Below are positions 8,224-61,800 of a stretch of DNA of 64,000 bases, one piece after another. The notes beneath the pieces were generated by a model that saw nothing but the letters and a program-made list of their open reading frames with translations, ran no database searches and was not told the DNA's origin. Positions within the stretch are counted from its first letter, which is position 1. Every line of letters begins with the position of its first letter. Source of the DNA: Geosiphon pyriformis uo1 (lineage: Eukaryota > Fungi > Glomeromycota); the NCBI GenBank assembly GCA_016748015.1, contig JAAOMT010000553.1, forward strand, positions 1 to 64,000, written 5' to 3'. Made by a program: the position numbers and the translations under genes.

Positions 8224-9171
8224 TATTACTGAAGGTTTTTGGTCTCTTTTCTTAAATGTTGTTAATGTCTGTTTGCTGTAAATTCACAACTAAAGAAAGT
8301 AGTTGGACCTCCAATAACTGAATTTATCTTCAAATTATCTCTTATAATTTGAATTGTTGGGTTTATAAGTGAAATAACCAATTTCATGCCAGTTGCTTTG
8401 TGTAGTTACGTTGTAGTAAATATCAACTCTTTTTCAGAAATTGCTCATCTGGAAGCTCATTAAAAATGTGTAGTTACTTTGCTATGAAAGTCAACGCTTC
8501 TACAGGAATCTTGTCTGTAGACTACCCTAATAATTATAATGAGAAAAAAAAATAAAATAAAAGAAATGTAAAAAAAATAGAATTGTATTAAGGGAAACGT
8601 TTTCTATTCAGGCCTGGAGTTACTAACAAATTACTGAAATTGGTAGCTAATCAGTTTCAAAATGTTAGTTGTGTTGAGAGAATTTCAAGTGTAATAATTT
8701 TAAAGGATTTGGTTTTTGAATATTTTAATTTTTATTTAAGATATGTTAAAGATGATTTGTTCTAATTAAGATATTTAAAATAAGATACTATGGTAAGATA
8801 CATTTTCTTGAAGAGAGAAGCTTTTCTTTTATACAACTTGTTATAGTACTAGTCTTTGAACTTGCACTTTTCTCTTTGCTTTAATTTCGGTGAACTAAAG
8901 ATACATTTCAGCAAACTACAAATTATTGATTATTTCGGCCAATTTTCATCAATTTCGGCGAATTTTGACTATATTAAATGGTTCAGGGTATTGTGTAATT
9001 TGATTATCTTAATTTCTATGATACAAATCGGATTATTAATTGAATGATGATATTTGATAATTTGGTTAAATAATAAGTAATAATTGAAATGATAATAATA
9101 TATGTTAATTAATAATAAGAATTATGAAGATAATTTCATGCTAATTAATAGCTAAAATTTTACTGGTAACA
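8224..9171 (-). mobile_element. Solo LTR, family A (homologous to 15115-16089)
   Basis: Reverse complement starts TGTTACCAGTAAAATTTTAGC and ends GAGACCAAAAACCTTCAGTAATA, colinear with the family A LTR. Confidence 0.85.
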
Positions 9172-9758
9172 GCATTAATTTTTTAATCAATTAGTAAATA
9201 ATAAACAAAACAAAAAAGAGAAAAGAAAATAAAAAAATAAGCCAAGACAAGAAAGAGTTAGTATTTTATCAATAGCTGTGATCAAAAGTTATTGGTCCAA
9301 TATAGTTAAGTATTAGCAACTATTAACATAAGTTGTTGATAGTGGAAAGATGGATTGTAATGTTTAATAAGTATTTTATTAATATTTGATGTTTTCACTT
9401 CAAGTTATAGAATACTATCATATAAAAGAATAGATAAGGAATAAAACTGGAGATTCTAAACTAAGAATTCTGTCTTTTTTGCTTCTACTGCCACTATTAT
9501 ATATACATAAATTTTGTTATATGAAATTCCTTGAATTCTTTAATTCTCTAACCAGAAATCTTGGAATTTCTGAAATTTTGTAATTTTTTAAGAAAAATCC
9601 TAAAATTCTGGAATCTTGTAATTCTTTATACTAGAATTTTGTAATTCTGAAATTCTGCAATTCTCTGAGAAAAATCTTGAAATTCCACTTTTATTACATT
9701 TTATTCTGATTGGCTAATTCGTATATTAATATATAATTCCTATATTCTATAAGTAACA
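9172..9758 (-). mobile_element. Partial LTR, family B
   Basis: Minus strand starts TGTTACTTATAGAA, then AGCCAATCAG, a GAATTCC-type array and TATATATA; homologous to 55076-55984. Confidence 0.8.
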
Positions 9759-11686: not shown

Positions 11687-14600
11687 GTGTCTTTTTCTGA
11701 ATATTTAAGATCAAACTCTGCATCAGTATTATATGCATATTCTGACATGATACTTTTATTATTATTGCTAAACCATTTGAGTTTTTGCTTCTTTAAAAGA
11801 TTTGGAAGTGCTATATATTGTTCAAAATTTTTGTCAGAGTTTGAATTGTTGTTGTTACTGCCCATTTAGACAAAGTTAAAACCATTGTTGTTATTATTAT
11901 TAGAGTTTAAATTGTAATTGAATCTTAATTCCAATTTCACTGTATACTTGCTAATTGGTTTTTTTCTTCAGAAATTGAATAAATTATGCATAGTAGTAAA
12001 TTATAAATGAGATCACAATCATTACAGTATTTAAAGTCACTGGAAATTAAGCAATATTTATATAGCTTTGTATTTAGTTGTTTTAATTTTTGCTTTTGCT
12101 TTTTATAAGTCAGTGCTATGTATTGGTAGTTCTTATAAAATTGTTAATGAGTTATTTTTAATTTTCAGTATTTTATTGAGTGAAACATCTTCAGTTTTGA
12201 CACTTGTCATTCTTTAAATTTCATGTTTATTGTGTGAATAATTTTTTAATTATCTTAGTGCTCATTTTCAAACAGTATTAATCAGAGTCCCTTTTTATAT
12301 TTAATCATTAATTAAAATCATATATTAATACAATTTATTACATGTTTTTCTTGTCCAAAAATATTATTCCACATTCTTTTGTCAAAAAAAAATGGTTTTA
12401 CACACAAGACAAGACTTTTTGTCCTATTTTCTCTGTTATTTAGGTCATCCAAAGCATTCAAGAATGCATAGATAACAATAGTACTTGGTTGCCATTAATT
12501 ATTCTTTATCATTGCCACAACATGCACCTATTGTTGACAATTTTTTGCCACAATCAACACATATTAGCTTAAGTCAATGATAATTTATCTGTTTTTGGGG
12601 CATAATAGTGTACAGAATATAAGTAGATATAATAGCTTGGAGTTGTTGTTTTTTTTTGTTTTTTTCCAGATAAATATGGGTGGTAATATGTTGTGTTCTT
12701 TTTTGGTCTATGAAACTTAATAGGCTTTCCAAGTAGGTTTTTTTTGTTTTTTTTCTAACTTAATCAATAGTTGCTTTCTTAAAAAAGCTTTAATATGTTC
12801 ACAGATGGCAGGCACTCAAGTATACTGATTGTTAAATATTAACTGGAGCTTTTAAGTGTTTTAGTTAAGTATAATATTGGTTTTAAACAGCCAGTTATTA
12901 TTGATAAGAGTTTAGTATTGGGTGGCTTCTATTATTAATACTTTGATTGTTGTAATAATGTCATTAACTTCAAAAGAAAAGTTATTAATTTTATCTATTA
13001 GAGTTTTTGTTGTTTTATCAGCTGTAATTATTCTAATGCTAGCAGCTTAATTAACTCAATGACCTAATTAGTTCATGAGTTGTTATATAATAATGCTGTT
13101 TGTTGACTTATTATTAAAAATTAGCTTGATAAGTTGACTATCAACTTTAGTATTAGTATACATAACAGTGATTGAGCTAGTATTAAGAATGGCTCTATTA
13201 AACAGAAATGTTGATGTTAGTTCTTTGAATTCAAAAGGAAATAATGTGGCAAGTGATTTGTCTTTGATAATAGTTATTAGTAGGATGTTGTTAATGAGTA
13301 GTTGGTTTTGGTTGGTTTTTTGTTTGTTGAATTGGACATCTTTTGAGGTAATCAGGAGACTTAAATAGCTCTGTAAATTCGAATTTTGGGTGTACTCAGT
13401 TCTCAAATTCCTTGGACATAATTCTAATGTCTGTTGTAATAAACTGGAAATCAGCTAGTGCATAATCATTATTAATCTCCAATTTTATTGGATGTGCATA
13501 ATTTTTGGTCTTTGACTTTTAGATAATATTTGAGCTAAGTTGTATAGTAATACTGGAATTGGTAGAATTTGATAAACTATCTGTAGTTGATAGATATTTG
13601 GGGCTGGAGTTAGATAGAGTGGAGGTATGTATATTAATTGTTGTGTTATTTGGGTATAATGAGACTAAAATTGGTTCTGATTTGGGTTGTAGTTCAGAGT
13701 TTGAAACTGGCAATTGGAGTTTTAATATTGATTTTCCAATTGTTAGTTATTAAATTTAACATAACAATTAGCCCTTAGATGGCCTTGTTTATTACAATTA
13801 TAACAGCTATGTGTTTCTTGCTGCCATAATTGATTGTTTAATGATAATAAGAGATGTAACTAATTTTGGAATTAATTAAAATTTTTTAAATTGTCATAAC
13901 ATTGTAGAGATTGATAAATTGCTTGATTGTTAGCTAAGTATCTTTTTAATTTCTGGTTGATGAAATCACTAAATTGTTTCAACTTAGAGTTCAAGTCAGA
14001 TAATCTATTTATTACTAGATTAACAGTTTAAATATGGTTGGTTTTTAGCTTGGTTAATTTAAAATCTTAAATGTTCATAACTGTGTCTTAGAGTGTTTAT
14101 AGATATAATGAGCATATGCATTATAGAAAACTACTGCACAGACTGCAAATAAACTAATTCAAAATCTGTGGCACTATAAAATAATTTGTGTTGATTGTTT
14201 AAATTTAACACAAATTTCTATGAAAATATTTCAAGTAAGTAGTAACTGCTTTAGTGTTCTCTTGCTTGATAGTGGTGAAAACAGTTGTTAGATAATTAAT
14301 ACTATTATTGTTATTAAAATATCTCAAAAACTCAATTTTAAATATGTTAAAGATTTGGAGTTTTTAAATCAAGCTCTAATATTATGAGTTAGCAGTATTT
14401 TGTAAAAAGTATGGAATGGCTTATAGGGCTCTGGCATTGTTTCATCCATTGGCTGCAATGGCTTTTGTCATATTATTTAGTCATGTTTAAACATTGTTTT
14501 TTTCGCTGGTAAATTTCTCAAGTTTGGCAATTAGTATGTAGACTATTGGTATAAGTTGTTGTTATGGTTGTGATAAAAGTGATTATTAAAGTTGCAGAAA

Positions 14601-15055
14601 TATAGCAACTAGTACAACTGGTAGATTAATCATGATTACTAAGAGTATATTTTGAGAAATAATAAAAATGGAGTTTAGATTGTTTGGGTTTTTCTGAGTT
14701 GGAACAATCAGAGTTTATAATTTCAGATTATTTGGGATTGGGTTTTAATTATTCAATTTCTGATTGTTGTCTTTCTTTTTTTCTGAGTTGGTTCTTTCCC
14801 AAGGGTTAATAGCTCTAAAATTCAGTTGAGATAAGAATAATTGCAATTCTAATAGTATTGTTGGTCACAATTTAAATTCTTTAAAATAATCACTGTAAAT
14901 TTCTAATAATTTGGTTTTTTCTTATTTACTTTAAAACAATACTCTGGTTAGCAGTATTTTTGTGTTTAATGTAAATGTGACTGCTGATGTTATATTGATG
15001 GTACTTTCTAGCATATGATAGTATGATGGATTAATAAGTGAATCAATTTTTGGTT
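11687..15055 (-). mobile_element. Decayed Ty3/Gypsy internal region (gag, protease, Cys-rich module, dUTPase N-terminus)
   Basis: ORF 13083-13406 FPFEF...ITVMYTNTKVDSQLIKLIFNN (protease); ORF 11668-11865 KWFSNNNKSIMSEYAYNTDAEFDLKY (dUTPase motif 1); many stops. Confidence 0.8.
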
Positions 15056-16134
15056 TTTTTCATATGAGTTTTTACACAGTATATTTTAAATATTGCTAAT
15101 GAATTTTTTAATATTGTTACCAGTAGAATTTTAGCTATTAATTAGCATGAAATTATCTTTATAATTTCTATAATTAATTAGTATATTAATATCATTTCAA
15201 ATTATCATTTATTATTTAATCAATTATCACATATCACGATTCAATTAAAATAATCTAATTAGTATAACAGAAAGTAGGATGATCAAATTACACAATACCC
15301 TGAACTTTATAACATTCAAAAATTCCCCGAAATTTACAGAAATTCACCAAAATTATGAATAGTTCACCCAAATTAATCAATAGTTCAGCGAAATAACTTG
15401 TAGTTTATCAAAATGTATCTTTAGTTTGCCAAAATTTGAGCAAAGAGAAAAAGTGCAAGTTCATAGACTAGTACTACAACAAATTGTATAAAAGAAGAGC
15501 TTTTCTCTTCTGAAAAATGTATCTTACTTTAGATTTATTACTTAGAACCATTCCTACACACACAAAAAGAAATAAATATCAAATAATTTGAAAAACCAAA
15601 TTTTTTAATTATTGCACTTGGAAAATCCCCAAAACCCAACTAATGTTTTGAAATTGATTAGCTACCAATTTTGGTAAACTGTTAGTGACTCCAGGCCTGG
15701 ATAGAAAAACGTTTCCCTTGATAAAATCCTATTTCTTTTATATTTCTTTTATTTTTCTTTTTTTTTCTTATTATAATCATTAGGGTAGCCTACAGACGAG
15801 ATTCCTGTAGAAGAGTTGACTTTCACAGCAAAGTAACTACACATTTTTTAGTGAGCTTCCAGACGAGCAATTTCTGAGAAAGAGTTGACATTTACTACAA
15901 CATAACTACATAAAGTAACTGGCAAGGAATTGGCCATTCCACTTATAAGCCCAATAGTTCAAATTATAAGAGATAATTTGAAGATAAATTCAGTTATTGA
16001 AGGTTCAACTACTTTTAAAAAAAAATGTGAATTGCAACCAACAGACATTTACAACATTCAAGAAAAGAGACCAAAAACCTCCAGTAACATTTGGTGCTTT
16101 CCCACAGAAATAACACAGCAACAACAAATTCAAA

Positions 16135-18567
16135 GTGGCAACCACACCAGACACAGCAACTCTAGAGTATTGTCAGTCAATTTACACCCACTGCAAGCAA
16201 AGATTCAACATTCCAGACGGAATTGAAGTTGTCAAGAAATCAGTATACCAATACATTGAAAACTGCTTCAACAATTATCTTTTTGGAAACTACAATATTT
16301 CAGAAGTTAAAAGCAATCTCTACAATAATTTAGTGCACTATTCACAATTGGAAACAGAAGACCTGAACAGTGAAACACTTGCTACCTACTTTCAAGAACT
16401 TAATTTTAATATTATTAAGTATTGTGAAGAAAAATACCCAGTACAGTCTAAATACTCTTTTGATTTTGAATCAGAGACAGAAGCAAACAACAAAGGCAAA
16501 CAAAGATTGAAGCAATACTCAAGAACCATTTCAAACACTCCAACACTACAAAAGACAACTGCCAAACACTTGCAAACACCTGAACAAAGAACCAGTATTA
16601 AATTACCACTTTCTATTACACCATTTCCAATTTTACTTGTTCAACTACAAACACCAAGTTCACCACTTAACTATTTCTCTAGACCAGAAGATTTTCAGTC
16701 ACCTAGAAATCCTACTCAACAACAGGAATCAATATCAACAAGTGCCAATATCATTGATTACTTACAGGAAAACGAAAGTAATCACTCAGAAAGCTTGGAA
16801 AGTGAAAAAACTGAATCAGAACCAGAAGAAATTACAGAAAACAAAGAAAAAATGGCAGCTGCTTACATTGCAAAAATCCCAGAATTCATTGGTAAAAACA
16901 ATGATACCAGTCCTCAAGAATGGCTTGACAAAGTTCAAAAAGCAGGAGCTGCAAATGGTTGGATCGCAGCAAGAATGCTCAAAGCAATTCTCTACTTTCT
17001 CCAAGAAACAGCAGGAGAATAATTTGAAAACTTAGAAGAACTATTTGAAAACTGGCAAGCATTCAAAGATGCTTTTCTACAACAATTTACTGACAACAAT
17101 ATTTCTATTACTCTCAGAAACCACTTTTGCAATATCAAACAAGAAATATCTGAATCTGTTATGACTTATCTTGGAAGATTTAACAAACTTCTCAGATGAA
17201 TCCGACAATTGGAAACCAATAATTACTATTCTGATGCTTAAATTCTGGATCAGTTTATAGCAGGATTAAAAGACAAACTGATTAAGAAAGTCTGTCTACA
17301 TGCTCCAGCAGATTTAGCAACTGCTATTAGACATGCAAAAAGCTATGAAATGGCAATGGAAGAAGCAAATCACACCAAGCTTGTAAATCTTGTAATTGGA
17401 GAAACCAGCTTAGCAGCTAAAGAAAAGATAGACCAACTCACAAAGAAAGTTGAAAGCTATTTTACAAACCAACAACAACAGCAGTAACAACCACAAAGAT
17501 ATTAACCATCACAATGACACAACCAAAACAATTTTGGATCACCCTCCAACAACCAACCTCAAAATTGTCATTATTGTGGAATTTCAGAACACTGGAAACG
17601 AGATTGCAGAAAACTGCAAAGAGACCAACAAAACAGGAGTAATCAACATTACTCTTTACCACAACAATCCTATTACCAATCTTTACCACCAACCTATTAT
17701 TTACCAAGATCACAAAATCAAAACAGTTACTATTCACCAGCTCCACAACCAATGCAGCAACAATATCAGCAATCTTTACCAATTCAGCCATATCAGATAC
17801 CACCTACTCAACAATATCAAGTACCAGCAAAAAAATTGGTTCAACATAATCAATTCACACCCCAAAATCAATTGCAGAATAACCACAACAGAATCAATCC
17901 AAATAACCAGTTGGTTCCTCGAAATTTGGGTCAGCAAAGACTCAATCACTATCACACTCAACCCAGTTATCTTACAATACCAGAGAAATCGGATTTTCAA
18001 CAAACTGCACTTTCTGAAGATGAAGTTGCAGTGCCAAGATCAAACCCTTCCAACCACACCATTCCACCAGCTCAAATTGCCCAAAATGCTAATCTGTCAG
18101 ATATATTTCCATTTGAATTTGAAGCAAATGAATCACTATTTCTGCTTAGTAATACAGCAGTCAATGAACAGAAAGCAATTACTGTTATGTACACAAAAGC
18201 TACAGTAAAAGGAAAACCCATTCGCTTAATCTTAGATAGTAGATTAGCTGGAAGTATCATCACTTACCAGCTGATGCAACAACTCAAACGAAACATAGAC
18301 AGACCAGCTCAAACAGTTATTGTCACAGCTGATGGTATAAAAAAGACTCCAGTAGGAGAAATTGATGATTTCCTTTTTTCAATTGATGGAATCACCATTT
18401 CAGTTAAAGTTCTTGTTATGGATGCACCCCAATACCAAGCTCTAATCGGAAATAATTGGCTTCTCAAGGCCAATGCAAACCTGAACTGGGAAACTCAAAA
18501 ACTTAAAATCTCATACCAAGGACAATATACCATAGTACCTGCAACCTATAGTACCTTTAACAAATGA
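16135..18567 (+). pseudogene. Gag (capsid, CCHC knuckle) and aspartic protease of element A
   Basis: AKIPEFIG..PQEWLDKV capsid; CHYCGISEHWKRDC at ~17566-17607; Q/P-rich linker; LILDSRLAGSII (degenerate DSG) ...ALIGNNWL; several stops. Confidence 0.9.
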
Positions 18568-18609
18568 TCAGAAAAAGCTCCAGTATTTGAATTTGAAGAG
18601 AAGAAAGAA

Positions 18610-19400
18610 ATGCCACTTACTGAAACCTACATGACTCTTGGATCAACATCCAATTGGGCAGAAGAAACAGAACAAGAGATTTTTGAAGAATCAAGGGGAT
18701 GGAAGAAAGTTAGATATTCTACACCAGAACTATGGAAACAACCATCTTATATTCTACTCAAATGCAAAGATTGCAACAAAAAACTTTCATCAATGGGAGT
18801 ATGTATTTCTCCAAAAGAGAAATATGAAACTCATACCTGTTACTTTTGCAAAGCATGCCATAGAGAACGATTTGAATCTCCAAAAAGAAGTGGAAAATGG
18901 GACAACACACCTTGCCTTACATGTGGAGAAATGCTACCAGAAAAATGCAATTGGATTAATGTAGCAATGAGAGAAGGAGTATGTGATCAAACCTGTCAAT
19001 ATGCTTTATCAATTTCGGAAAAAGTCAGAAGAGAAACACCATTTGATACAACATACAACAGTGCTCTCAATAAACTTTACCACTACCCTCATGATGCTGA
19101 AATGATTTTTGACCTAGCAATGGCATTGATTAATGGAGCCACACAAGAAGATGTCTGCCAAATGAAAGAATCTGAATATATTGAGTATACCATGGAATTA
19201 GCTGGATTTGATTATGAAGATAAAGTAGAAACCTACCACCAAATTGCAAGCCACACATATTCGACCAAAGAAGCTCAAATTCAATGATTAGAGCAAATGA
19301 ACATTCAATTGTGTGAAGAATGTGTTATGCCTTGTGATGACCAATGGTGTTTAGAATGTTATGCTTTTAGCATTCCTCTGCCAGATGAGAATGATGAAAA
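18610..19400 (+). pseudogene. Cys-rich putative Zn-binding module between protease and dUTPase
   Basis: CKDC..CYFCKACH..CLTC..C..CDQTCQY..LCEECVMPCDDQWCLEC, in the same frame as PR and dUTPase. Confidence 0.7.
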
Positions 19401-19479
19401 TAAAATCGAATTTGGAGTATCTGAACTAGTAGAAGAACTACCAATCACTCCTATCTATCTTCTTGAAAAGCAACCACCT

Positions 19480-19915
19480 CTACAACTTAAATATTTTAAC
19501 AATCATGGCCAAGAAATCAGACCAAAAAAAGCACACGAAATTGATGCTGGATATGACCTAAGATATCCAGGAAAAGATACTTTGATTCTCTAACCAAAGT
19601 CTTTAACAAAAATCAATCTCAAAATTGTTCTTGAAATTCTACCAGGAGCAATGGTTCAAATTGCCTCCAGATCATTATTGGCAAGCAAAGGAATCAATAT
19701 TAGAGGAGGAGTTATAGATACAGGATACACTGGAGACATTACCATTATGTTACAGAATGAGACAGACAAACCATTCAAAATTGAACATGCTGAAAAAATT
19801 GCTCAAGCAATTTACTTACCCTTAATCAACATTTCGGGTTTACAATCAGTAAACAACAAAGAACAATTGGGAAAAAGTGAAAGAGGAACTCAAGATTTTG
19901 GTTCAACTGGACAAT
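19480..19915 (+). pseudogene. Trimeric dUTPase domain in pol
   Basis: All five motifs: AGYDL, SRS(L)L, GVIDTGYTG, KIAQA, RGTQDFGSTG; one TAA at 19591. Confidence 0.92.
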
Positions 19916-20399
19916 TTACAGTTCCAGTAAACATAGCTCTTAATACACAAAATGAATCTTACCAGATTTTTCAATTTTCTCAACCAATTACCATTTCACC
20001 TTTTGGAGAACATCACGAAATTTACACTTGCTCAAAACCCACTACTACCCAACAAATCTTTAAATCCAATGAACAAATTTGTTTGAAGCATGAAATATTA
20101 ATTCCAAATGTTTATATTCCCAAAGGAATGAAAAAATTTTGAGTTATATTCTACAACCCCAATAATTACCCTATTGTCTTATTAAACAAATTAGAAATTA
20201 GAATCATACACAGCAATATCTTTCAAGATGAAAACCCTCAAATTGTCTCTAATTTCATTGAAATTGTAAAGCATACTTTACTCCCAAATCCAAATATCAT
20301 TCCCAATACTGAAAACTACCACTTGTTGGAAGAAAAACTCTCTCAAATCAATATGGGTTCCTTATAACCTCAACAACAAAGACAATTGAAACAATTGAT

Positions 20400-21747
20400 A
20401 GCTGAATTTGCAGATATATTTGCAAAAAACAACAATAACTTGGGAAAAACAGACATTGTTTAACATCAGATCCATACAAGAGATGCTCTACCAAAACATC
20501 AACAAACTTATCAAGTGCCACCTGTCAGCCACCAATTTATCAGAGAAGAAGTCCAAAGAATGCTCAATAACGGATTGATTCAACCATCAAGAAGTTCTTG
20601 GGCCTCACCAGTAGTTTTAGTTAAAAAGAAAAACGGAAAAATCAGATTCTGTGTTGATTATAGACAACTAAATAATGTTACAATTGAAGATGCCTATCCT
20701 TTTTTAAGAATTGATGACATGCTAGATGCTCTAGGAAAAGCCAAGTTCTTTTCAACTTTAGACCTGGAAAGTAGATACTGGCAAGTCGAAATGGACCCAA
20801 AACAGCATTCACCACTCAAGGAGGAAACTATGAGTTTAATGTTATGCCTTTTAGACTCTGCAATACACCAACAACATTTCAGTGACTCATGAATGTTGTC
20901 TATGAAGGGCTCTTGTGACAATCAGTAGTTGTCTATCTTGATGATACTGATGTATACTCACCAAGCTTTGAAGCCCATCTCATTTACCTGTGAGAAGTTT
21001 TTCAATGATTACAGAAAGCAGGATTAAAGTTAAATATTGAGAAATGTCACTTTGGAAAAACAAGCTTGATCTTTTTTGGACACATAGTCAGTAAAGATGG
21101 AATCAAACCAAATCCAAGAACAATTAGTGCTGTCAAAAACTTTCAAACCTCCAGAAATACTACAGAACTAAGAGGATTTGTGAGATTAGTCTCTTACTAT
21201 CAAAAATTCATAAAAAGATTCTCAGAAATTGCCAAACCACTCAATTATCTTACCAACAAGAACGTACCATACAAATGGACTGAAAAACAACAAAAAGCTT
21301 TTGAAATTCTCAAAACAAAATTGACAACAGCCCCAGTTCTTGCTTACCTGGACTTCAACAAACGATTCCAATTAGCCACTGATGCTTCACACATAGTATT
21401 TGGTGCTATTTTATCACAATTAGATGAAAATGGCCAAGAACAAATTATTGCCTATGCCAGCAGAACACTCAAGCCAACAGAACTCAAATATGGCTCAACT
21501 GAATTAGAAGCTGTCACAGTTATTTGGGCTCTTAAACATTTTCAACAATATCTGAAGAATGGAAAAGAATTTAACATAATAATGGACAACATTGGTCTCA
21601 AATGGCTTAATAAAAAAAAAAACTGAACAAAGTGCTAAACAGTCTCAATGGAATAACTTCCTAGCAGACTACAGATATATTGTACACCACAAATCAAGAA
21701 AACTACATACCAATGTTGATAGCCTCTCAAGAATAAGACAAGATTAA
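20400..21747 (+). pseudogene. Reverse transcriptase and RNase H (Gypsy)
   Basis: WASPVVLVKKKNGKIRFCVDYRQLN, YLDD at ~20934, ATDAS, IAYASRTL, ELEA, NVDSLSR; frameshifts and stops. Confidence 0.95.
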
Positions 21748-21804
21748 TACCAACAACAATTCCACCACAACTTACCAACTTATCAACAAAATAGCCAAAC
21801 AAGA

Positions 21805-23190
21805 ATGGATCCCAGAAATTACAGCAATCTTAAAAATTATTTGGAAACTCTTATCATGCCAGAAAACTGGTTTCCAAGTGAAAAACACCACTTACAACAC
21901 CAATCAAAACAATATTTTATACACCAGAACAAAATCTATTATAAAAATCACAGAAAACCAAACCAACTACTCAGATTAGTACAAGAGAATAAAAAAGAAA
22001 CAATTTTATACAACATGCACACAAATCCGTCTTCAGCACACTTGAGAAAAAAGGGAACAATTCAAAGAACCCTTGAACATTATTTTTGGCCTCACATGCA
22101 AAAAGACATTTGACAATATGTAGAATCTTGTGATAGTTGTCAAAGAAGAGGAGGAACTCGCCCCACAGAACCTTTAAATCCAATCAAAGTTGGACAACCT
22201 TTTAACAGAGTTGGAATTGATTTAGTCAGACCATTACTTATCACAACCCAAGAAAATCATTATATTGCAGTTGCAGTGGATTATCTTACCAAATGGTCTG
22301 AAGCTAGAGCCATCCAAAGAGCAAATGCAAAATCAATAGCAAATTTTATCTATGAAGACATTATCTGTAGACATGGATGCCCAATTGAACTCTTATCTGA
22401 TCAAGGAACACATTTTGTGAACAACTTGATACAAAAAATTTGTGAACGGTTCAATGTCAAAAGACCTCTATCATCACTTTATTACCCTCAAACAAATGGA
22501 CTTGTAGAACGTTTTAATAGAACATTGTGTGAATCTCTAGCCAAAGTCTCAACAGACTTTGAGCAAGAATGGGATATCTTTATTCCATCAGTGTTACTAG
22601 CATACAGAACACTAAAACAAGATACTATAAAACACATACCATTTAATCTTACTTATGGAAGGACAACAACATTACCAATTAATTTTACAGTAGAAACATA
22701 CCCAGTGCAACCAATCAATGAAGAAAACTTTTAAGAGACATTCTAAAGAAGAGCCTACACTCTTCTTAGTACACTGAAAGGAAAAAGAAGAATAGCAGCA
22801 ACTCATATTAAACATTCCCAAGCTTAACAAAAAGAAAGACATAACAACAAATTACCATCTATTACCAACGAATTTAAAGTTGGAAATAAAGTTCTCTTAC
22901 ACAGAACTAAGGCTGAAAAACAATGGAGTGGGAAATTTGAAAACAAATGGGATGGACCATTTTATATTCACGAAATTCTAGGCAATGGATCATATAAGTT
23001 AAGACTTGATGACAAAATATTAGCAAAAGTTGCACATGGAGACAGATTGAAACACTATCATTCCAAAAACAATCCTGAACCATTAATTTCACAAATTGGT
23101 ACACATTCCTCTTTAATTAATCCTGAAGATATTCCTCGAAATTTAGAACCAATAATTATAATAAAACAACAACCAAACTTGAACACTTAA
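21805..23190 (+). pseudogene. Integrase (HHCC, DDE core, GPY/F) starting at its own ATG
   Basis: MDPRNY...H..H..CDSCQR; GIDLV; DYLTKW; SDQGTHF; PQTNGLVERFNRTL; WDGPF. Confidence 0.92.
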
Positions 23191-23332
23191 AATTTACAAT
23201 AATTCTCTAATAAAAACACAAAGACAAAAATAGTAAATAATTACAAAACACCCAAACCCAAAAACAAATAAAAACCCCATATCCAAAAATAATTTTCTTT
23301 ATTTTCTCTTTTCATAATTAGTCAATTTTATC

Positions 23333-23981
23333 ATGATTATTCCCCGAAATATTCAACAAATATCCCAAAAATTAATGTTAGCCTTGAAAACACTCCCTGA
23401 CTTATCTATAACGATTAATGGAAGTCAAATTAATTACATTTAGAAAAAAACCACAGCCCCAGTAGTAAATCATTTACAGAACTATCACCCCTATAGAAGA
23501 AAAACAAGAAGTCACTCTGAGAATAGATTACCAAGACTTTTGAAGCAAGCACTAAAAGAAAATCTTTTAATTGCCCCTATTGACATTCCACCAAATGCTA
23601 TAATGCAACAAAAACTTCTACTACTTCTCAATGAACAGAACAATAAACACACTCCTATCTATAAATACTTTCACATTGGAAAAACACTTTATGAACGAAA
23701 ACTGGAACTTGAAGCAACAAATCTCACTCCTGAAGCTATACAAAAACAAATCCACAATAAATTCAAAACAGCAGCTGGACCAACAAACACTCGCTACAAA
23801 CTTAGAACAGCTCTTAGACTCTATGACTTGTTTAATACTTGTGAAAATGTTCTACAAAATCCAATACTGCAACCAATGAAAGTCTAATATATTGGCAAAC
23901 TCACAGAACTGAAATTTCAACAATTTTCAGACCAGATTACTTCAATTATTTTAGATCACTATCTCAATATTACAGATAGTG
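23333..23981 (+). pseudogene. Accessory ORF3 (~215 aa, no signal peptide or TM segment) between integrase and 3' LTR
   Basis: One frame MIIPRNIQQISQKL...ITING...YKYFHIGKTL...RTALRLYDLF...KLTELKFQQF with two stops; homologues at 53369 (-) and 60222 (-). Confidence 0.75.
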
Positions 23982-24883
23982 NNNNNNNNNNNNNNNNNNN
24001 NTTTATTATTTAATCAATTACCACATATCACGATTCAATTAAAATAATCTAATTAGTATAACAGAAAGTAAGATGATCAAATTACACAATACTCTGAACT
24101 TTGTAACATTCAAAAATTCGCCGAAATTTACAGAAATTCGCCGAAATTATGAATAGTTCACCCAAATTAATCAATAGTTCAGCGAAATAACTTGTAGTTT
24201 ATCAAAATGTATCTTTAGTTTGCCAAAATTTGAGCAAAGAGAAAAAGTGCAAGTTCATAGACTAGTACTACAACAAATTGTATAAAAGAAGAGCTTTTCT
24301 CTTCTGAAAAATGTATCTTACTTTAGATTTATTACTTAGAACCATTCCTACACACACAAAAAGAAATAAATATCAAATAATTCGAAAAACCAAATTCTTT
24401 AATTATTGCACTTGGAAAATTCCCAAAACCCAACTAATGTTTTGAAATTGATTAGCTACTAATTTCGGTAAACTGTTAGTGACTCCAGGCCTGGATAGAA
24501 AAACGTTTCCCTTGATAAAATCCTATTTCTTTTACATTTCTTTTATTTTTTTTTTCTTTTCTTATTACAATTATTAGGGTAGCCTACAGATGAGATTTCT
24601 GTAGAAGAGTTGACTTTTACAGCAAAGTAACTACACATTTTTTAGTGAGCTTCCAAACGAGCAATTTCTGAGAAAGAGTTGATGTTTACTACAACATAAC
24701 TACATAAAGTAACTGGCAAGGAATTGGTCATTCCACTTATAAGCCCAACAATTCAAATTATAGGAGATAATTTGAAGATAAATTCAGTTATTGAAGGTTC
24801 AACTACTTCTAGAAAAAAACATGAATTGCAACCAACAGACATTTACAACATTCAAGAAAAGAGACCAAAAACCTCCGGTAACA

Positions 24884-29768: not shown

Positions 29769-32463
<2,695 letters not shown>

Positions 32464-36600: not shown

Positions 36601-37942
36601 TGAAGTAGGTTCCAGAATGCCTTAATAAATCGTTTCATATTTGGTTGTTAATATTTTGGAATTTTGCTAGGATGGGCCATCCCACTCTTATTATCTATCT
36701 TCATGGGTATATCATCGAAAATTAGTGCTATCACAGGAAATCTTATTTCTCGGTTTTGAATTGGGTTTGTATGGAAATCATGAATTCGTAATGATTTATT
36801 GGTAAGTTAACATTCAGCTGCATTAAACCAATCAAAAAAACCAAGTTTCAATTGACTATTTCTTTCGTACTAGGTATCTTGATTATTTGCTCGGAGTTCA
36901 TTTCCAACATCTTGAAAGGATGGCTTTACATATTAACTCCAAAACATCCTCAACAACTAAAGGTGATTTAAAACTTATTCAAAAGATTAAGTCATAAATT
37001 GTATTACTAAGGTTCAAATTTTTATAGAATTAAAGAAATCAAAGAAACAAAAAGCTTTGAGAGCTACCCCTCCATCAGCGCCTTCGGTTTCATTACTAAC
37101 AAGCAAAAAAATCATGATGACAGCACGACAGGAAATCTGTCGCGGAATATACAGGGTAACCTCATTTTGTCGGCTCATGTTTGTCTTGATTTTTGGCAAG
37201 AATCTAAAGTTAAGTCTCAAGTCATATTGGTGAGTAGACGATCACTGCTCTACAAAAAACTGGCCATATTTTGGTCCCACAACTTGAATACGATGACGAA
37301 AGTATTCGCTTTTGGCACCGATTCCTCATGTATCGAAATTTGGGCAGCCCGACCATGTTGACATTTAGTGAATTTAAAGAAAATACGAAATTCCAAAATT
37401 TGACGGTATGCTTCTTATTTAAATCATCAACATCACAAAAAAAATCTCTTTCAGTTATTCATTTTACTATTAAATATCAGGCAATCGATCTCTTGGCAGC
37501 ATCCAAGAAAAATTATGAATCTGCAAAATCAGCAATTGAAAATCTTTTAAAAATGAAGCTTATCGATTCCCGGATGGATTTGTGTGAATCTGAATTTCAA
37601 AATGTAAAGCAAAATTATGTTTTGATTTTAGAATTACCCAACGGAAAAATTGACTTTTTTCTCTTGCTAATTTAGGATTTGAAGGCCATGTTTCGCGTAT
37701 GCATCGCGAATATTGTAGGGGTGCAGAAAATGCTTGAAGATACAGAAATCCTGTTATTCAGTAAAGACGTTGCCATAAAAATGAAAGACAAGCAAAAGAA
37801 ACGGCCCAAATATCAGCCTAAACCAGAATCATCATCCCCTCCAAAAAATGAAAATTCGACACCAGAACATACGAGAAATAAAAATGTGAACTTTAATTTT
37901 AGATATCATCCTTGGTACCCAGTAATAATATTGCAGAGTTGA
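33684..37942 (+). CDS. MAK10: NatC auxiliary subunit Mak10/NAA35, many exons
   Basis: LYDAMSSIE|IMDPKMDSGM, MTWHSGHSLSQTLFTCMYLH, GNVYE|EEDF, LCHNRSRQRR, LGFELGLY, IRFWHRF, terminal HPWYPVI. Confidence 0.92.
36250..36498 (+). ncRNA. Structured intronic RNA in MAK10 intron 36212-36544 enclosing a candidate poison exon (36277-36336)
   Basis: 15-bp perfect, ~27-bp total stem 36250-36276/36472-36498 plus internal hairpins; cryptic AG at 36275-76 and GTAAGT at 36337. Confidence 0.55.
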
Positions 37943-38207
37943 TTAAATTTGTATTTATCAAACTTAGATTTCAATTTTTGACGAGAACACAACATTAAAG
38001 GCTGTAACTTTCCAGCTCATTAGATTAATTATGTCACCTTTGATATACAAGAGTAATATAATTAAATAAATGCTGACAATTTATATTAGCTAAACTTGAA
38101 ACTTCTGGAAAAGGCAACTTCAAAATTCAATTTTCTGAATCATCTTCAAAAGGTCAAAATTTCGATCTAAATCATGAAATAATTTTTGTTTCAAAGCAAG
38201 CAACACT

Positions 38208-41200: not shown

Positions 41201-41636
41201 AATACACTTCACGGAATTATGTTTTATCCTTGTAGTCTACCCGAGCAAAAGGATTTATCTGAGATCATCGATGCCAATCAAATTACAGGTCAGCGTAAAA
41301 AAGCAAAGCAGGACTATGAAGAACGCTTAGAGTCTATAAAAGCAGGTCGCGAGGGTCGTGAAAAGTACGGCTCATTCAAAACCAAAAAGCAAGAAGGTGC
41401 AAGCGCCACCAACAGGGAGACAGCTAGAAAAAAACCATTTATGATGGTTGTACATAAGAAAAATTTTCTATGCAAGAAAAAGCCGAGTTTAAGAGAAAAA
41501 CAGGTGCGTTGTTTTATGGTTCTTTACATTTTGTAAGGATCAGGCGAATGTTTTTAAATAATCCTCTTTTTTCTTCCAACCTTAATAGATGCAGTTAACA
41601 AACCGTCGGGGCAAGCAAAAATCACGCCGCAAATAA
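38208..41636 (+). CDS. SDA1: 60S ribosome biogenesis factor Sda1, multi-exon
   Basis: [95 protein letters not shown]. Confidence 0.95.
38460..38600 (+). ncRNA. Candidate structured intronic RNA (snoRNA-like) in SDA1 intron 1
   Basis: 245-nt intron with stems ACAACTG/CAGTTGT, GTCT/AGAC, AGCAA/TTGCT and AAGGAAA/TTTCCTT. Confidence 0.4.
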
Positions 41637-51902: not shown

Positions 51903-54900
51903 TATTACAAGTGATTATTTGGGATCTTAAATCAAATAACAAACCCATAACTTGGTGCTTAATTGATAATATAGTGATGTTAGTATCTAAAAGTTTTGAT
52001 TATCTAAAGGTTTTGGTTAAGTCCTTTGTATAATAGACAGAGATTCAGTTGTGATTGTTTAGTAGCTTCCTAGAATCACAATTCCATCCAATTTTTTTCT
52101 CAGCTTGGTGGCTGGTTTTATTTTGACAGTTGTGCCTTTCTGGTAAGCTATCCATTAATATAGATATAATGTTACCCTTATTTCTGGATCTTTTACCAGG
52201 CTATTCATGATGTCAATAACTCAGTGCTCAATTTTTAATCAATTAGTAACAACAAGAAATAACAAATAAAATAAAAAAAATATAAAAAAATAAGCCAAGA
52301 CAATAAATATTAGTATCTTATTAATAGTTATAATCAAGAGTTATTGTTTCAGAGTGGTTAAGTATCATTTACTATCAACATAAAGTATTAATAGTGAAGA
52401 ATAGATTGAGATAATGAATAATTATTTATTAATATTTGTGAATAGAAAAGTATCTTAGATCAAATCTAAAACTAAGAAGTCTTGGTATTGATTCTGTTTT
52501 TTTCTACTTCTAATATTACTGTTATATATATATAATCAAGATTTCTCAATTTTTCAATTTTTCACACCAGGAATTCTGGAATTTTTGGAATCCTGTAATT
52601 TCTTTAAAAAGAATTCTGAAATCCTGCAATTCTTCTAAAGAGAATTCTGGAATTCTTATTTACTATGTCTATTTCTGATTGGCTAATTTTATATATTAAT
52701 ATACTTCCTATATTTTATGAGTAACATTATTCCCTTCTTTTAATATTGAGTTTTATTGAGATCTCCTAATTTTAACTCTCTATCTTTGAGTATTTCCTAA
52801 ACTTTTTTTTCAATAATTACTTGAGTTATCTTGCTATGTAATTTTTCAAATTGAGCATTGGTTATTTTTTTTATTTGGTTAATGGTAATAATGTTCATTG
52901 CTGAATTGAGTAAGATTTCTGGTTGGTCTTGAAATTCGATTTGTAATTAATAGATGGCTCATGCTTGTATGGTTAGATTGTTTTTTCTCACAAATTGCTC
53001 AAGTTGTTGTAATATCTCTGGATTGAATAATTGTTTTGTCTTATCCATATATAAGTTCTGAATATTCAGGTGTTGTTCCAAGTGGAAATAACAAAAGTTT
53101 CTTGGAAATTGTTGTGTCCACCAATTTTATGTTTCTATTGTCAATTCTTAATATTGAGTGACTTTTGGTTGTGCTTCTATTATCAATTTCATCTTTGTGA
53201 TTATTTTGTCAATAGTGTTTTCTGTTTTTTTCTATACTTTATTTTGTGGTCTCTTTCTGGTGTTTTTGTATTTAATGGTTTGTTAATTGATTGTAATTTC
53301 CATCTCTTGTTGTTGAATCAGTTGAAAGAATTGTTGTGCTAGTGAGAATATGTTGTTGGTAATTTCCATTTTTCTGATGTTTTTCATCACGTTTACTATG
53401 TCTTTATATTCTTTTATTTGCTCAATTTGACATGTTGGTGTCAATAATAATGATTGGTTTTAGATCTTATAAGATCTCATCTGGTTGAACTAGTATTTTC
53501 TGTACTTCTAATTGTGGAATATTACTGATAGATGATGATACTATATGGTGATATGGTTTCAGTTGATTATCATGTGCTGTTTTGGCTAAGCTTTTGTTGT
53601 TTTATCTTAATTTATAAGCTCTATTTTCAAGAATTTCTTCTATGTGAAATGATCTGTCCTATTTAGAGTCAAATTTTTTACTCCATTGTTTTTTCACTTT
53701 GGTATAATATAAAAGTACTTTGTTTCCAATCCTAAATTTAACTGGTTTATCTAGTAGTTGGTTATTGTGTCTTTTTTTTTTGTTTTTCTTGTGACTTTTG
53801 GATGTTATTAGGTGTTCTTTGTCATTTGTTTTCTAGAGTTTCCATCAAGTTATATGTTCTTCTTAGCAATATTTCTTGAAAATTGTCTTCAGTTATTAGT
53901 TCTATTGGATATGTATTAACTTTTATCTTAATTGGTAATGTTGCCATTTTACCATATATTAATTCAAATAATGTTGTCTGTGTGGTGTCTTGTTTTATTG
54001 TCCAATAAGCAAATAATACTAATGGTATAAACAAATCTCATTCATTTTGGTTTTCTTGGCTGATTTTGGCAATTGCTTCACACAATATTCTGTTAAACCT
54101 TTTAACTAACCTATTTGTTTACAAATGATATGATAATAATAATAGTCTTTTGATTCCAAATTTTTGACTTAATTCTGCTAGTGTTCTGTTTACAAAGTGA
54201 GTTCCTTGATCTAATAGTAGTTTTTTTGGACATTTGTATTGACAAATCAAATCTTGATGAACAAATTTGGCAATGAATTTTGCATCTGCTCTTTGAATGG
54301 CTTTTGCTTCTGACTATTTAGTAAGATAATTCATGGCTATTGCTATGTATTTGTTGTTTCTGCTGGTTATGATTAATGGTCTGATTAAGTCAATTCCAAT
54401 TCAATCAAATGGTTGTCTCATTTTAATTGGTTTTAATGGTTCACTGAGTCTTATTCCTTCTTTTCTCTGACAAGCATCATAATTTTGAACATATTAAATG
54501 ATATCTGAATATATTAATGGCCAATAGTATCTTTTTCTGGTTCTTTCCATGATTGCTTCTTTGTAAAAATGTCCTGCTGTTAGATCAAAGTGCATGTTAA
54601 ATAGTATTGTTTTTTTTTCTGATTCCATGATTACTCTGATTGGTTGATCTGAATTTTTTCTGTTTTTCCGATAAAGTATATTTTGATGAATGATAAAATA
54701 TTTTGATTGTTGTTTTATGTTGTTTTGCTCCTTTTAAGATAATTTTTCTTTGAACTGTTGGGTATTTATATAATGCTAAAGTTGTTGGTATTTTTGTGTA
54801 TTCATTTTTTGTTATATTTTTGTGTTGTAATATTCTAATTTTGTTATATTTTTGGGTTGAAATGTTCAGATTTGTTTTATTTGTGACAAATTATTGGCAT

Positions 54901-55075
54901 TTTTGTTTTTTTTTCTCTTTTTATAGTGTATCATAAAAGTGTATAGTAACAGTGCAATTTTTCATCTTGTATGTTAATCGTCTCTAAATTTTTGTTTCTA
55001 GATTAAAGTCAATCTTTTGTGATTGGTGTGTACTTCAAATTTCTAGCTTAAGTATTTCTTTTCATTTCATGACAG

Positions 55076-58804: not shown

Positions 58805-61800
58805 TATTACAGATAATTATTTGGAGTCTCAAAGCAAATAACAAATCCATAACTTGGTGCTTAATTGATATAATGATGTTGGTTTCTAAAGGTTAACTGT
58901 ATCTCAAAGTTTTAATTAAGTTCTTTGTATAATAGACAGAGATTCCAATGCAATTTTTTTTAAATGGTGTTTTCAGTATTAACCTGTGGGTTAAGTAGTT
59001 GTTGTCCATTGCTTCCCGGAATTACAATTCTATTAATTCTTTTTTTGGCATGGTGGCTGGCAATTTCCTAGTAAGCTATCCTCAAATTTGAATGTCTATC
59101 CTTATTCTTGGGTTTTTTACTAGTGCTATATCCTAATGTTAATAACTCAGCACTTTAATTCTTTAATCAATTAGTACACAACAAGAAAAAAAAATAAAAA
59201 AAAATAAAAAAATAAGCCAAGACAATAAATGTTAATATTCTATTAATAGTCATAATCAAGAACTATTGTTCTAGTGTAATTAAGTATCAATTATTATCAA
59301 CATAAAGTGTTAATAATGAAAAGTAGATTTGAAATATTGAATAATTATTTATTAATATTTGTAATATATAAGGTTGCTAGGATCAAATTTAAATTGAGAA
59401 GTTTGTTTTTTCTCTTTCTAATGCTATTGTTATATATACCTAATTTATGTTCTATGAGATCACTTACATTTTTGAGCAATGTACTATGATTTCTTGAGCA
59501 ATATGCTCACATGCTAACTACTACTCTTTTATTGGTCTACTATTTTTCTATATCTGTTTTCTTTATAAATAACATTATTTTCTCCTTTTAATATTAAGCT
59601 CTATCAAAATTCTTATTTTGAATTATGTCAAATACTTTTTTTTCAAGTAGCATCTATTCCACCCTACTCTTTATTTCTTCAATTTGTGAGTTGTTCATTC
59701 TTCTCCATTGGTTGATAGTTATTGTTTCTATATTAGAGTATAACAATATTTCTGGGTAGTTTTGAAATATAGTGTGTAGTTAATAAATAGTCTTAATATA
59801 TAGTGTTAAGTTTGTTTTTTTTTCAATAATGTTTTTAATATTCTGGATTATCTCTTGATTAAAAATTCTCTTGAATTTGTCAAGATATAACTTCTGAATA
59901 TCTACTTTTTGTCTCAATTGATAGTAACAATATGGTATTAGAAGTTGGTCTATTTATTGGTTCTAATTTTTTTTGTCAGTTTTTCTGTTGAAACAATAAT
60001 AGTTATCTTTCCAAAAGTGTTCTTTACTTTCTCTACTATTTTATTTGACCAGTTTATTGATTGTTTTTATGCTCACTGGTATGATGTACTTTTTCCTTTT
60101 TGTTTGGTGTTTTGATAACAGATTGTTTGGTTGTTAATGATAATTTTTATGTTTACTTGCTGTTAATTTAAAGCCTGAAACAATTATTGAGCTAAAATGT
60201 AAATATGGTCTGGTATTTCCATTTTTCTTTGTTGTTTTTGTCGTGTATACCATGTCTTTATATACTCTTTTAGTTGTTTAATTTGACGTGTTTGGTTCAA
60301 TAACTATGATTGGTTCTAGATCTCGTAGAATTTTATCTGGTTGAACTAGTATTCTCTGTGCTTTCAGTTGTGGAATATTACTGGTAGATGCTGATACTAT
60401 GTTTTGGTAAAGTTTCAGTTGATCTCCATGTACTGCTTTGGTTAAAATTTTGTTGTTCAACTTTAATTTATAAGCTTTATTTCCTAGAATTTTTTCTATG
60501 TAAAATGGTCCATCCCATTTAGAGTCAAATTTTCCACTCCATTGTTTTTCCACTTTGGTATAATGTAAAAGTATTTTGTCTTCAATCCTAAATTCAACTG
60601 GTTTATCTGGTAATTGGTTATTGTGTCTTTTTTTTGTTTTTCTTGTGACTTTTGGATATTATTAGCTGCTTTTCGCCATTTGTTTTCTAGTGTTTTCATT
60701 AAGTCATATGTTCTTCTCAATAATGTTTTTTGAAAATTTTCTTCTGTTATTGGTTCTGTTGGATATGTTTTGACTTCTATCTCAACTGATAATATTGCTG
60801 TTCTATCATATACTAATTTAAATGGTGTTGCTTGTGTAGTGTCTTGCTTTATTGTCTGGTAAGCAAATAATACTGATAATATAAACAAATTCCATTTATC
60901 CTGGTTTTCTTGGCTGATTTTGGCAATTGCTTTACACAATGTTCTGTTAAATCTTTTAACTAATTCATTTGTTTGTAAATGATATGATGATGATAATGAT
61001 CTTTTTATCCCAAATTTTTGACTTAATTCTGTCAATGTTCTATTTACAAAGTGAGTTCCTTGATCTGATAATAATTCTTTTAGACATTTGTGCTAACAGA
61101 TCAAATCTTAATAAATGAATTCAGCAACAAATTCTGCATCTGCTCTTTGAATGACTTTTGCTTTTGGCTATTTTGTGAGATAGTCTATGGCTATTACAAT
61201 ATATCTGTTGTCTCTGCTGGTTATTGTTAATAGTCTGATTAAGTTAATTTCAATGTAATCAAATGGTTGTCTCACTTTGATTGGTCTTAATGGTTCACTG
61301 GGTCTTGTTCCTCTTTTTCTTTGACAAACATCACAATTTTGAACATATTGGATAATATCTGGATATATTAATGGCCAATAGTATCTTTTTCTGATTTTTT
61401 CTATAGTTGCTTCTTTGTGAAAATGTCCTGCTGTTGAATCTGAGTGCATATTGAATAATATTGTCTCTTTTTCTGGTTTTGTAATTACTTTGATTGGTTA
61501 ATCTGAATTTTTTTTGTTTTTTCAGTAAAGTATATTTTGATGATTGATAAAATATTTTGATTGTTGTTTTATATTGTTTTGTTCCTTTTGAGATAATTTA
61601 TCCTTAAACAATTGTGTATTTATGTAATGTTGGAGTTGGTATTTTTGTATATTCATCTTTTGTTGTATTTTTGGGGTGAAATTTTTTTTAGATTTGTCTC
61701 ATTTGTGACAAGCTGTTGGCATTTTTTTTTTCTTTTCCTTTTTGTAATGTATTGTATAATTAAATGATAAAAATTTTATTTTCCATCTGGCATAGTGATT

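Follow-up and report, generated by a model that had tools for sequence, protein, structure and literature searches.

Three stretches of the Geosiphon pyriformis DNA analysed here (the window, meaning the whole stretch of 64,000 nucleotides) are decayed copies of one ORF3 family in Ty3/Gypsy elements. ORF3 is the non-Env third gene, coding for an unnamed protein family, of a three-gene Gypsy lineage of early-diverging fungi, and it is almost certainly a real gene under selection. New here are two features of these elements: the integrase is a separate ORF in all four elements examined, and ORF3 together with the U3 part of the LTR has moved as one cassette between elements B and C.

Three copies of ORF3 and their family

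A preliminary description of this DNA had reported three homologous ORFs. Their ATGs (23333 on the plus strand, 53369 and 60222 on the minus strand) and quoted N-termini were as claimed, and the Y[FY][HQ][IL] motif and the C-terminal motif were found in all three. The copies are as follows.

23333..23981, plus strand: ORF3 copy A (subfamily A-I); 216 codons visible, 2 stops, 3' end lost in an assembly gap
52740..53369, minus strand: ORF3 copy B (family B); 209 codons and a stop, with 7 or more stops inside the frame, which closes at the PPT
59588..60222, minus strand: ORF3 copy C (divergent B-type lineage); stops and a frameshift

All three ORFs are broken: two stops interrupt the 216 codons of copy A and seven the 201 codons of copy B, and in copy C stops are accompanied by a change of frame near 59960-59983. 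Both stops of copy A are private decay, since at each of them about nine tenths of the run X1 contig depth carries another letter. Copies B and C terminate at the PPT, as previously noted. The size of about 215 aa given for copy A was wrong: its frame enters an N gap (23982-24001), and its relatives have 235-239 aa.

The homology of the three copies stood at the level of profiles and failed pairwise, where A and B had no similarity (BLASTP E 0.38; no match by tblastn); copy C was at most 43% identical to any protein compared. The A-family and B-family profiles aligned over 187 columns with 23% identity (probability 86, E 5e-6). Their score was 43.6, whereas the highest of 40 column shuffles was 21.4 and the reversed comparison gave 13.0. 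The family-B profile recovered copy A within the window (E 5e-5), and a third Geosiphon family (P0250, P0279) was reached from both the A and the B side.

Searches returned mostly hypothetical proteins of G. pyriformis, which are gene predictions. They made up all 120 listed of the 207 protein clusters matched by copy A, all 96 clusters matched by copy B and 101 of the 103 matches of a mixed profile. Among the 120 listed family-A proteins, 63 had full-length sizes (235/221 or 239/225 aa, reflecting two start codons), and 62 of these 63 ended in an acidic tail. A phmmer search against 1.84 billion representatives gave 32 matches; for the seven whose origin was looked up, five came from Geosiphon, one from ENA and one from JGI. 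Two pairs of intact metagenome homologues of 230-234 aa (P0246/P0278 and P0247/P0251) shared 28-30% identity with family A and 37% with one another. The frame is kept across families that are 23-37% identical. In a tree of 19 proteins, long branches led to six groups, namely A-I, A-II, B, D and two from metagenomes; the joins between these branches are possibly false, and the branching order was not used.

No relatives of ORF3 were found in the viral contigs searched (where an integrase query was run as well), in phage records, or in 34 bacterial genomes, the last in a search without a positive control. PHROGs returned unnamed families only, the best (phrog_23683, E 4e-4) for 8 of 27 members, all of family A. 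The top ESM Atlas match, a Mucoromycota hypothetical with 98 members (0.93), may be the ORF3 family's own cluster. A metagenome scan with two short patterns yielded 2 loci from 485 candidates, and the host range is thus under-sampled.

Selection on ORF3

Over 153 codons of ORF3, B and C differed with a dN/dS of 0.29 and a pN/pS of 0.50 (bootstrap 0.38-0.65), compared with dN/dS values of 0.94 and 1.81 for their C-terminal DNA in two shifted frames. Purifying selection, the check that had been named beforehand, was therefore found. At the whole-gene level there was no sign of positive selection, dN/dS being well below 1. Identity between B and C by codon position was 0.59/0.78/0.48. For A against L001 (the metagenome contig of P0247) pN/pS was 0.75 (0.63-0.90), a value near saturation.

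An independent contig (run X2, same sample) had 28 differences, and the 24 listed fell 5, 1 and 18 on codon positions 1, 2 and 3, a third-position excess of 18 in 24 (p 4e-5). The 22 ORF3 differences among the rows listed for run X1 split 9, 1 and 12. The chance of an open frame of 200 codons at this base composition is about 1e-7.

Element architecture and the separate integrase ORF

Copy A lies in a whole Ty3/Gypsy insertion, whose parts are given below together with the 3' LTRs of the other two elements.

15115..16089, plus strand: 5' LTR of element A, TGTTAC...GTAACA, preceded by the target-site duplication ATAT
First 20 bases of the 5' LTR of element A, plus strand: last five codons and stop of family-A ORF3
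16090..16105, plus strand: PBS-like stretch (TGG...) directly after the 5' LTR of A
16114..21747, plus strand: ORF1 of A, decayed; gag, zinc knuckle, protease, Cys-rich stretch, dUTPase, RT and RNase H, stop at 21745-21747
21805..23190, plus strand: ORF2 of A, integrase, decayed; own ATG, H2C2 finger, rve core, SH3-like tail
24002..24883, plus strand: visible 3' LTR of A, 96.4% identical to the 5' LTR, followed by ATAT
51903..52726, minus strand: 3' LTR of B; in its U3, short repeats of the GAATTC type precede the TATA box
58805..59574, minus strand: 3' LTR of C; U3 not alignable to that of B, remainder 84% identical

The Pfam order in A was zinc knuckle, protease, dUTPase, RT, RNase H, integrase finger, core and SH3-like tail, and no chromodomain was matched on the integrase tail. 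The order PR-RT-RNase H-integrase, the TG...CA LTRs, the target-site duplication, the PBS-like TGG and the PPT identify the elements as Ty3/Gypsy; the PPT was seen in B, C and L001 and that of A falls in the assembly gap. The LTR pair of A is 96.4% identical over 882 bases, and 31 of its 32 differences (15208-16089 versus 24002-24883) are transitions. According to the available part of PMC6431247, fungi and rotifers are known to have elements in which a dUTPase is placed between protease and RT.

The order in L001 is RT-RNase H, stop, integrase, a 316-base spacer, intact ORF3, PPT and LTR, with an integrase core 69% identical to that of A. ORF3 lies between pol and the 3' LTR in all four elements read at the DNA level. 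In the same four elements RNase H closes in a stop and the integrase opens at its own Met, at these junctions:

21745-21807 of the window: RNase H stop and integrase Met of A
near 55000: the same junction of B
near 61790: the same junction of C, in another frame
772-801 of L001: the same junction of L001

From these stops and starts we derive the three-gene layout. The usual Ty3/Gypsy arrangement, with integrase inside the Pol polyprotein, was found in none of A, B, C and L001. The stop of A at 21745-21747 had no variant at 10% or more of depth, and among 1,077 run X1 contigs none of 25 variant rows touched it. Integrase is therefore separate from Gag-Pol as judged by ORF layout, which leaves room for read-through of the stop. 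The available portions of PMC5911963 and PMC4427930 contain no case of a separate integrase ORF. Titles and the opening lines of abstracts gave no account of this ORF3 family, nor of a Gypsy element whose integrase stands alone; supplements or repeat libraries may annotate such elements.

Several other features of the window were recorded. In A, some 250 open codons without a Met (16114-16870) run from the PBS into the gag frame before the first ATG, which may reflect a lost start, a start other than ATG or a spliced leader. The Cys-rich stretch between protease and dUTPase (18568-19284, several CxxC) had no Pfam match and has relatives at 12217-12594 and 50569-50988. Between RNase H and integrase, B contains a small plus-strand element (55076-58045) whose two LTR-like repeats are 84.9% identical and whose 1.1 kb interior holds tandem repeats, and C is inserted in B at 58805. 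Two partial gag-protease elements at 12200-15060 (minus) and 47968-51855 (plus) are 68% alike and have no ORF3 in the parts present. A solo family-A LTR at 8226-9178 (minus) is about 80% identical to the LTRs of element A. Intron-bearing host genes lie at 2132-3061, 29769-31259 and 37238-41536; the translation of that at 29769-31259 (minus) resembles a DEAD-box helicase with a C-terminal zinc knuckle.

Features and predicted structure of the ORF3 protein

The preliminary description had proposed a soluble, mostly helical, non-Env accessory gene. This agrees with the lack of a hydrophobic segment, with a helical model at pLDDT 81 and with the purifying selection. The highest 19-residue Kyte-Doolittle mean was 0.27-1.29 in the seven members tested, all of which accordingly lack a TM helix; by hydropathy none of the seven has the signal peptide and transmembrane anchor expected of an Env. 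No Env family appeared among the Pfam matches of 27 members. The pI was 8.7-9.6 in six of the seven, the exception being P0247 (pI 6.6, not basic).

AlphaFold2 with 27 diverse sequences gave a model with pLDDT 81 and pTM 0.65. An earlier model from a shallow family-A alignment reached pLDDT 49, and fold searches with it were set aside. The model consists of a helix (11-24) and a hairpin (29-42), then a loose linker, followed by helices at 60-72, 88-96, 105-122, 129-144, 149-163, 167-171, 180-185 and 188-224. Residues ~85-205 of P0246 form a predicted helical core, in which a G-x-T-N turn leads into a basic helix. A P0246 homodimer prediction that left the alignment unused scored 0.01 and spoke neither for nor against a dimer.

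Conserved columns, taken as those common to five or more of the six families or basic in every one, numbered 35; Y107, Y109, G113, G145, T147, N148, R158 and F163 stood out. Outside the PPT-coded tail none of these columns is D, E, H or C, and no Cys is conserved across the six families. Invariant catalytic residues as in a GDSL esterase (S/G/N/H) or a DEDDy exonuclease (D/E) were not found. This pattern fits a binding protein rather than an enzyme or an Env. No acidic activation region was noticed apart from the PPT-coded tail. We rejected the acidic C-terminal motif of family A as a protein signature, as it equals the PPT plus the LTR-start sequence: L-P-V-E-F-stop, encoded in the ORF3 frame at the start of the 5' LTR, is also how the family-A C-terminus reads. 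Since the tail is composed of PPT and LTR start, family-A ORF3 ends inside U3; those of B and C stop at the PPT.

From the ORF3 motif we had suspected, ahead of testing, a DUF1016_N/ParB-type helix-turn-helix. DUF1016_N was the one Pfam family encountered repeatedly in family A, as the best row for 4 of 10 proteins. These rows had E 0.03-0.12 and 13-15 bits, all four proteins belonged to subfamily A-II, and the best value (15) lies below the curated cut-off of 32.8 bits for PF17761. In the wider Pfam run DUF1016_N appeared for 2 of 27 members. A structure search of 48,161 chains gave a best Z of 4.2 with no fold match standing out. DNA-binding domains of Spo0J/ParB/KorB occupied ranks 3, 26 and 30 of the top 30 rows:

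1vz0: Z 4.0, rmsd 5.3, 93 aligned
6s6h: Z 3.4, rmsd 2.9, 59 aligned
1r71: Z 3.3, rmsd 5.6, 95 aligned

At Z 3.3-4.0 the ParB-family domains tie with unrelated helical proteins, in the range of common helical arrangements. Foldseek gave no match in PDB or BFVD at E 0.001 or better. An absent fold match shows neither a new fold nor an excluded family, and the N-terminal part was barely tested. A PDB sequence search with the family profile had a best E of 0.036 (importin-5, haemagglutinin helices), which we took as chance.

Profiles of ParB and DUF1016_N match each other (probability 50, E 1.6e-4), and one six-sequence ORF3 profile was collinear with DUF1016_N over 76 columns (E 0.047). Against 70 DUF1016_N sequences the ORF3 profiles reached probabilities of 0.5-1.1 (E 0.047-0.12), and against 26 ParB sequences 0.3-0.6; E was 0.047-0.2 over both sets. 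The 27-sequence profile scored 16.1 against DUF1016_N, where 30 block shuffles reached 17.8, and 14.1 against ParB, where 25 shuffles reached 16.1; the shallow ORF3 alignments limit the power of these comparisons. DUF3102 was present at one locus in the 34 bacterial genomes, too few for a profile. The N-terminal domain of YhcG is described as helical and unassigned in the available text of PMC1189080.

The predicted ORF3 protein resembles DUF1016_N (PF17761, the YhcG N-terminal domain) and the ParB/Spo0J/KorB helix-turn-helix in its helical domain, where a turn and a basic helix come after a Y-[FW]-x-I-G helix, and in alignments that are collinear but weak. It differs in having no nuclease or ParB N-terminal domain, in its extra N-terminal helix-hairpin and long C-terminal helix, and in scores at the level of shuffles. 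The link to a ParB/DUF1016-type helix-turn-helix is a weak hint, below significance, and we regard it as doubtful.

Exchange of ORF3 and U3 between elements B and C

Elements B and C form a mosaic when compared over the following regions.

B 51903-55075 versus C 58805-61895, minus strand: mosaic regions, from sequence comparison

Their integrases are 84.2% identical with transversions at 2.2% of sites. After its first 15 codons, ORF3 falls to 64.3% identity with 17.8% transversions, and dS is 1.44 in ORF3 against 0.29 in integrase. As proteins the two ORF3s are 43% identical and adjoin integrases that are 84% identical at the DNA level. Upstream of the TATA box the similarity of the two U3 regions is at the level of chance, 23 of 200 shuffles reaching the observed score; the LTRs are 84.0% identical in the part that begins with the TATA box. 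Because ORF3 and U3 both diverge while integrase and the rest of the LTR remain at 84%, we conclude that ORF3 and U3 were exchanged as one block, a conclusion drawn from the single pair B and C.

The exchange suggests a protein tied to its promoter and fits less well a dedicated partner of integrase. In reverse transcription, one crossover combined with intermolecular first strand transfer yields such an ORF3-U3 block, an established retroviral mechanism. The cassette therefore does not require that ORF3 recognise U3, since ordinary reverse transcription can produce the block. Each U3 examined carries its own short repeats, which in AT-rich U3 may be chance.

Candidate signals for expression of ORF3

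One candidate signal precedes ORF3.

23293-23321, plus strand: pyrimidine tract and AG ahead of ORF3, in family A only; either a splice acceptor or a promoter element rich in pyrimidines

An env-type acceptor had been suggested at this place. The tract and AG are present in A and absent from B, C and L001: the spacers before ORF3 in B and C are 55-60 bases long and purine-rich, and L001 has a pyrimidine-rich stretch up to the ATG without an AG. Within the 7.9 kb internal region of A the tract is the only YAG with at least 80% pyrimidines in the preceding 25 nt, and this uniqueness suggests more than chance. Judged from these signals, splicing may hold for family A, and an internal promoter or ribosomal re-initiation may serve all families.

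Two further observations concern these sequences. One run X1 DNA contig is without most of the integrase-ORF3 spacer (23191-23324), the acceptor-like tract included. A second pyrimidine tract with YAG lies inside the family-A LTR, at 15783 and at the matching place of the 3' LTR.

Possible functions of ORF3

The reading that we favour, as possible though short of probable, is that ORF3 is a DNA-binding regulator of the element's own LTR. ORF3 would be made from its own subgenomic message, spliced in family A or started at an internal promoter, and the soluble protein would be located in the nucleus. There its helical core would bind DNA in the U3 of its own LTR, the target being family-specific short repeats upstream of the TATA box. 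Binding would switch on or protect transcription of the element, as Tas does for the foamy virus LTR. The preliminary description had not chosen between transactivator, targeting factor and anti-silencing factor; the evidence leans weakly towards a DNA-binding regulator and weakly away from an integrase partner, and it proves neither. A fuller version describes an Env-less lineage resembling complex retroviruses, with a Gag-Pol lacking integrase, an integrase and ORF3 each separately started, and with ORF3 as a sequence-specific LTR transactivator built on a bacterial ParB/DUF1016-type helix-turn-helix and exchanged with its U3; as a whole we consider it unlikely.

ORF3 might instead bind RNA or serve as an accessory of the particle, aiding the packaging or import of the separate integrase or of the element RNA. 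An integrase outside the Gag-Pol frame in all four elements needs another way into the particle, and ORF3 is basic. For both queries, the ESM Atlas lists the filamentous-virus coat family PF01785 (0.91-0.92), but with 138-150 shared features, fewer than the 170 typical of true members, recognition is below the mark of the tool. Nor does the divergence of the ORF3s of B and C beside their similar integrases point to close co-evolution of the two proteins, and we hold this role to be rather unlikely.

Unlikely, too, in our view is an anti-silencing role, in which ORF3 would attach to a host protein or to small RNA duplexes and thereby weaken RNAi or cytosine methylation of the element. Decay almost only by transitions, as in the LTR differences of A, is what heavy methylation-linked deamination would give, and the commonest singleton replacements are E>K, P>L, L>F and T>I. 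ORF3 is exchanged as a module and diverges fast, in a genome of which LTR elements make up 41.2% according to the available part of PMC11952901. On the other hand, we found nothing among known suppressors that resembles ORF3, its dN/dS lies well under 1, and the copies are evidently still mutated.

We think it quite improbable that ORF3 is an integration-targeting factor that replaces the missing chromodomain and tethers integrase to chromatin. The integrase tail of A has no chromodomain match, B and C are nested in other elements and the core of ORF3 possibly binds DNA; but ORF3 was exchanged against a nearly constant integrase, and nesting is common in repeat-rich genomes. It is highly improbable that the frame has no function and merely arose through repeat amplification or through constraint on PPT and LTR. 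In favour of this, all three window copies are broken, PPT and LTR start explain the acidic tail (and that part only), and the Geosiphon proteins are gene predictions; but the frame is kept across divergent families, and the dN/dS of 0.29 with neutral shifted frames, the third-position excess and the small open-frame chance refute this account unless a larger DNA set differs.

Relation to known elements and implications

Extra ORFs that are conserved and lie between pol and the 3' LTR have been described as a class, most of them of unknown function (Vicient and Casacuberta 2020, PMC7264820). Geosiphon ORF3 resembles their sense type, aORF-3S, in position, orientation, presence in most family copies, conservation and unknown function, and it has the conserved presence and purifying selection that define such ORFs. 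The sense ORFs reviewed there are Env-like with transmembrane segments and come from plants and insects, whereas ORF3 codes for a soluble protein in a fungus and comes after a stand-alone integrase ORF; its family-A version extends over PPT and LTR. The nuclear or regulatory candidates, Grande gene23 and Boty, are antisense (PMC7264820).

The ORF3s of bdelloid rotifers, as presented in the available part of Rodriguez et al. 2017 (PMC5408684), are likewise third ORFs of ~200-230 aa in dUTPase-bearing Gypsy-like elements and undergo modular exchange. They encode GDSL esterases, DEDDy exonucleases, coiled coils or transmembrane proteins, whereas Geosiphon ORF3 has no catalytic residues, TM segment or Pfam match. 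Our working analogy is Tas/Bel1 of foamy viruses, an accessory gene near the 3' LTR, coding for a protein that both binds the LTR promoter and activates it (PMC4929722, PMC8670036 and PMC13220597, in their available portions). Foamy viruses differ in being enveloped vertebrate retroviruses with a proven internal promoter; the likeness of ORF3 to Tas concerns its putative working, not a demonstrated homology.

The additional ORFs of LTR retrotransposons are acknowledged as an unsolved question (PMC7264820). With many intact versions, six divergent families and a confident model, the ORF3 family offers a clean test case, and the natural ORF3-U3 exchange predicts specificity for cognate over non-cognate U3. 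The separate integrase ORF raises the question of how integrase is made and packaged outside Pol. The element class that carries ORF3 covers ~41% of the G. pyriformis genome, by the available text of PMC11952901, and hundreds of ORF3 copies stand in the records as hypothetical genes of the host, so that gene counts are inflated.
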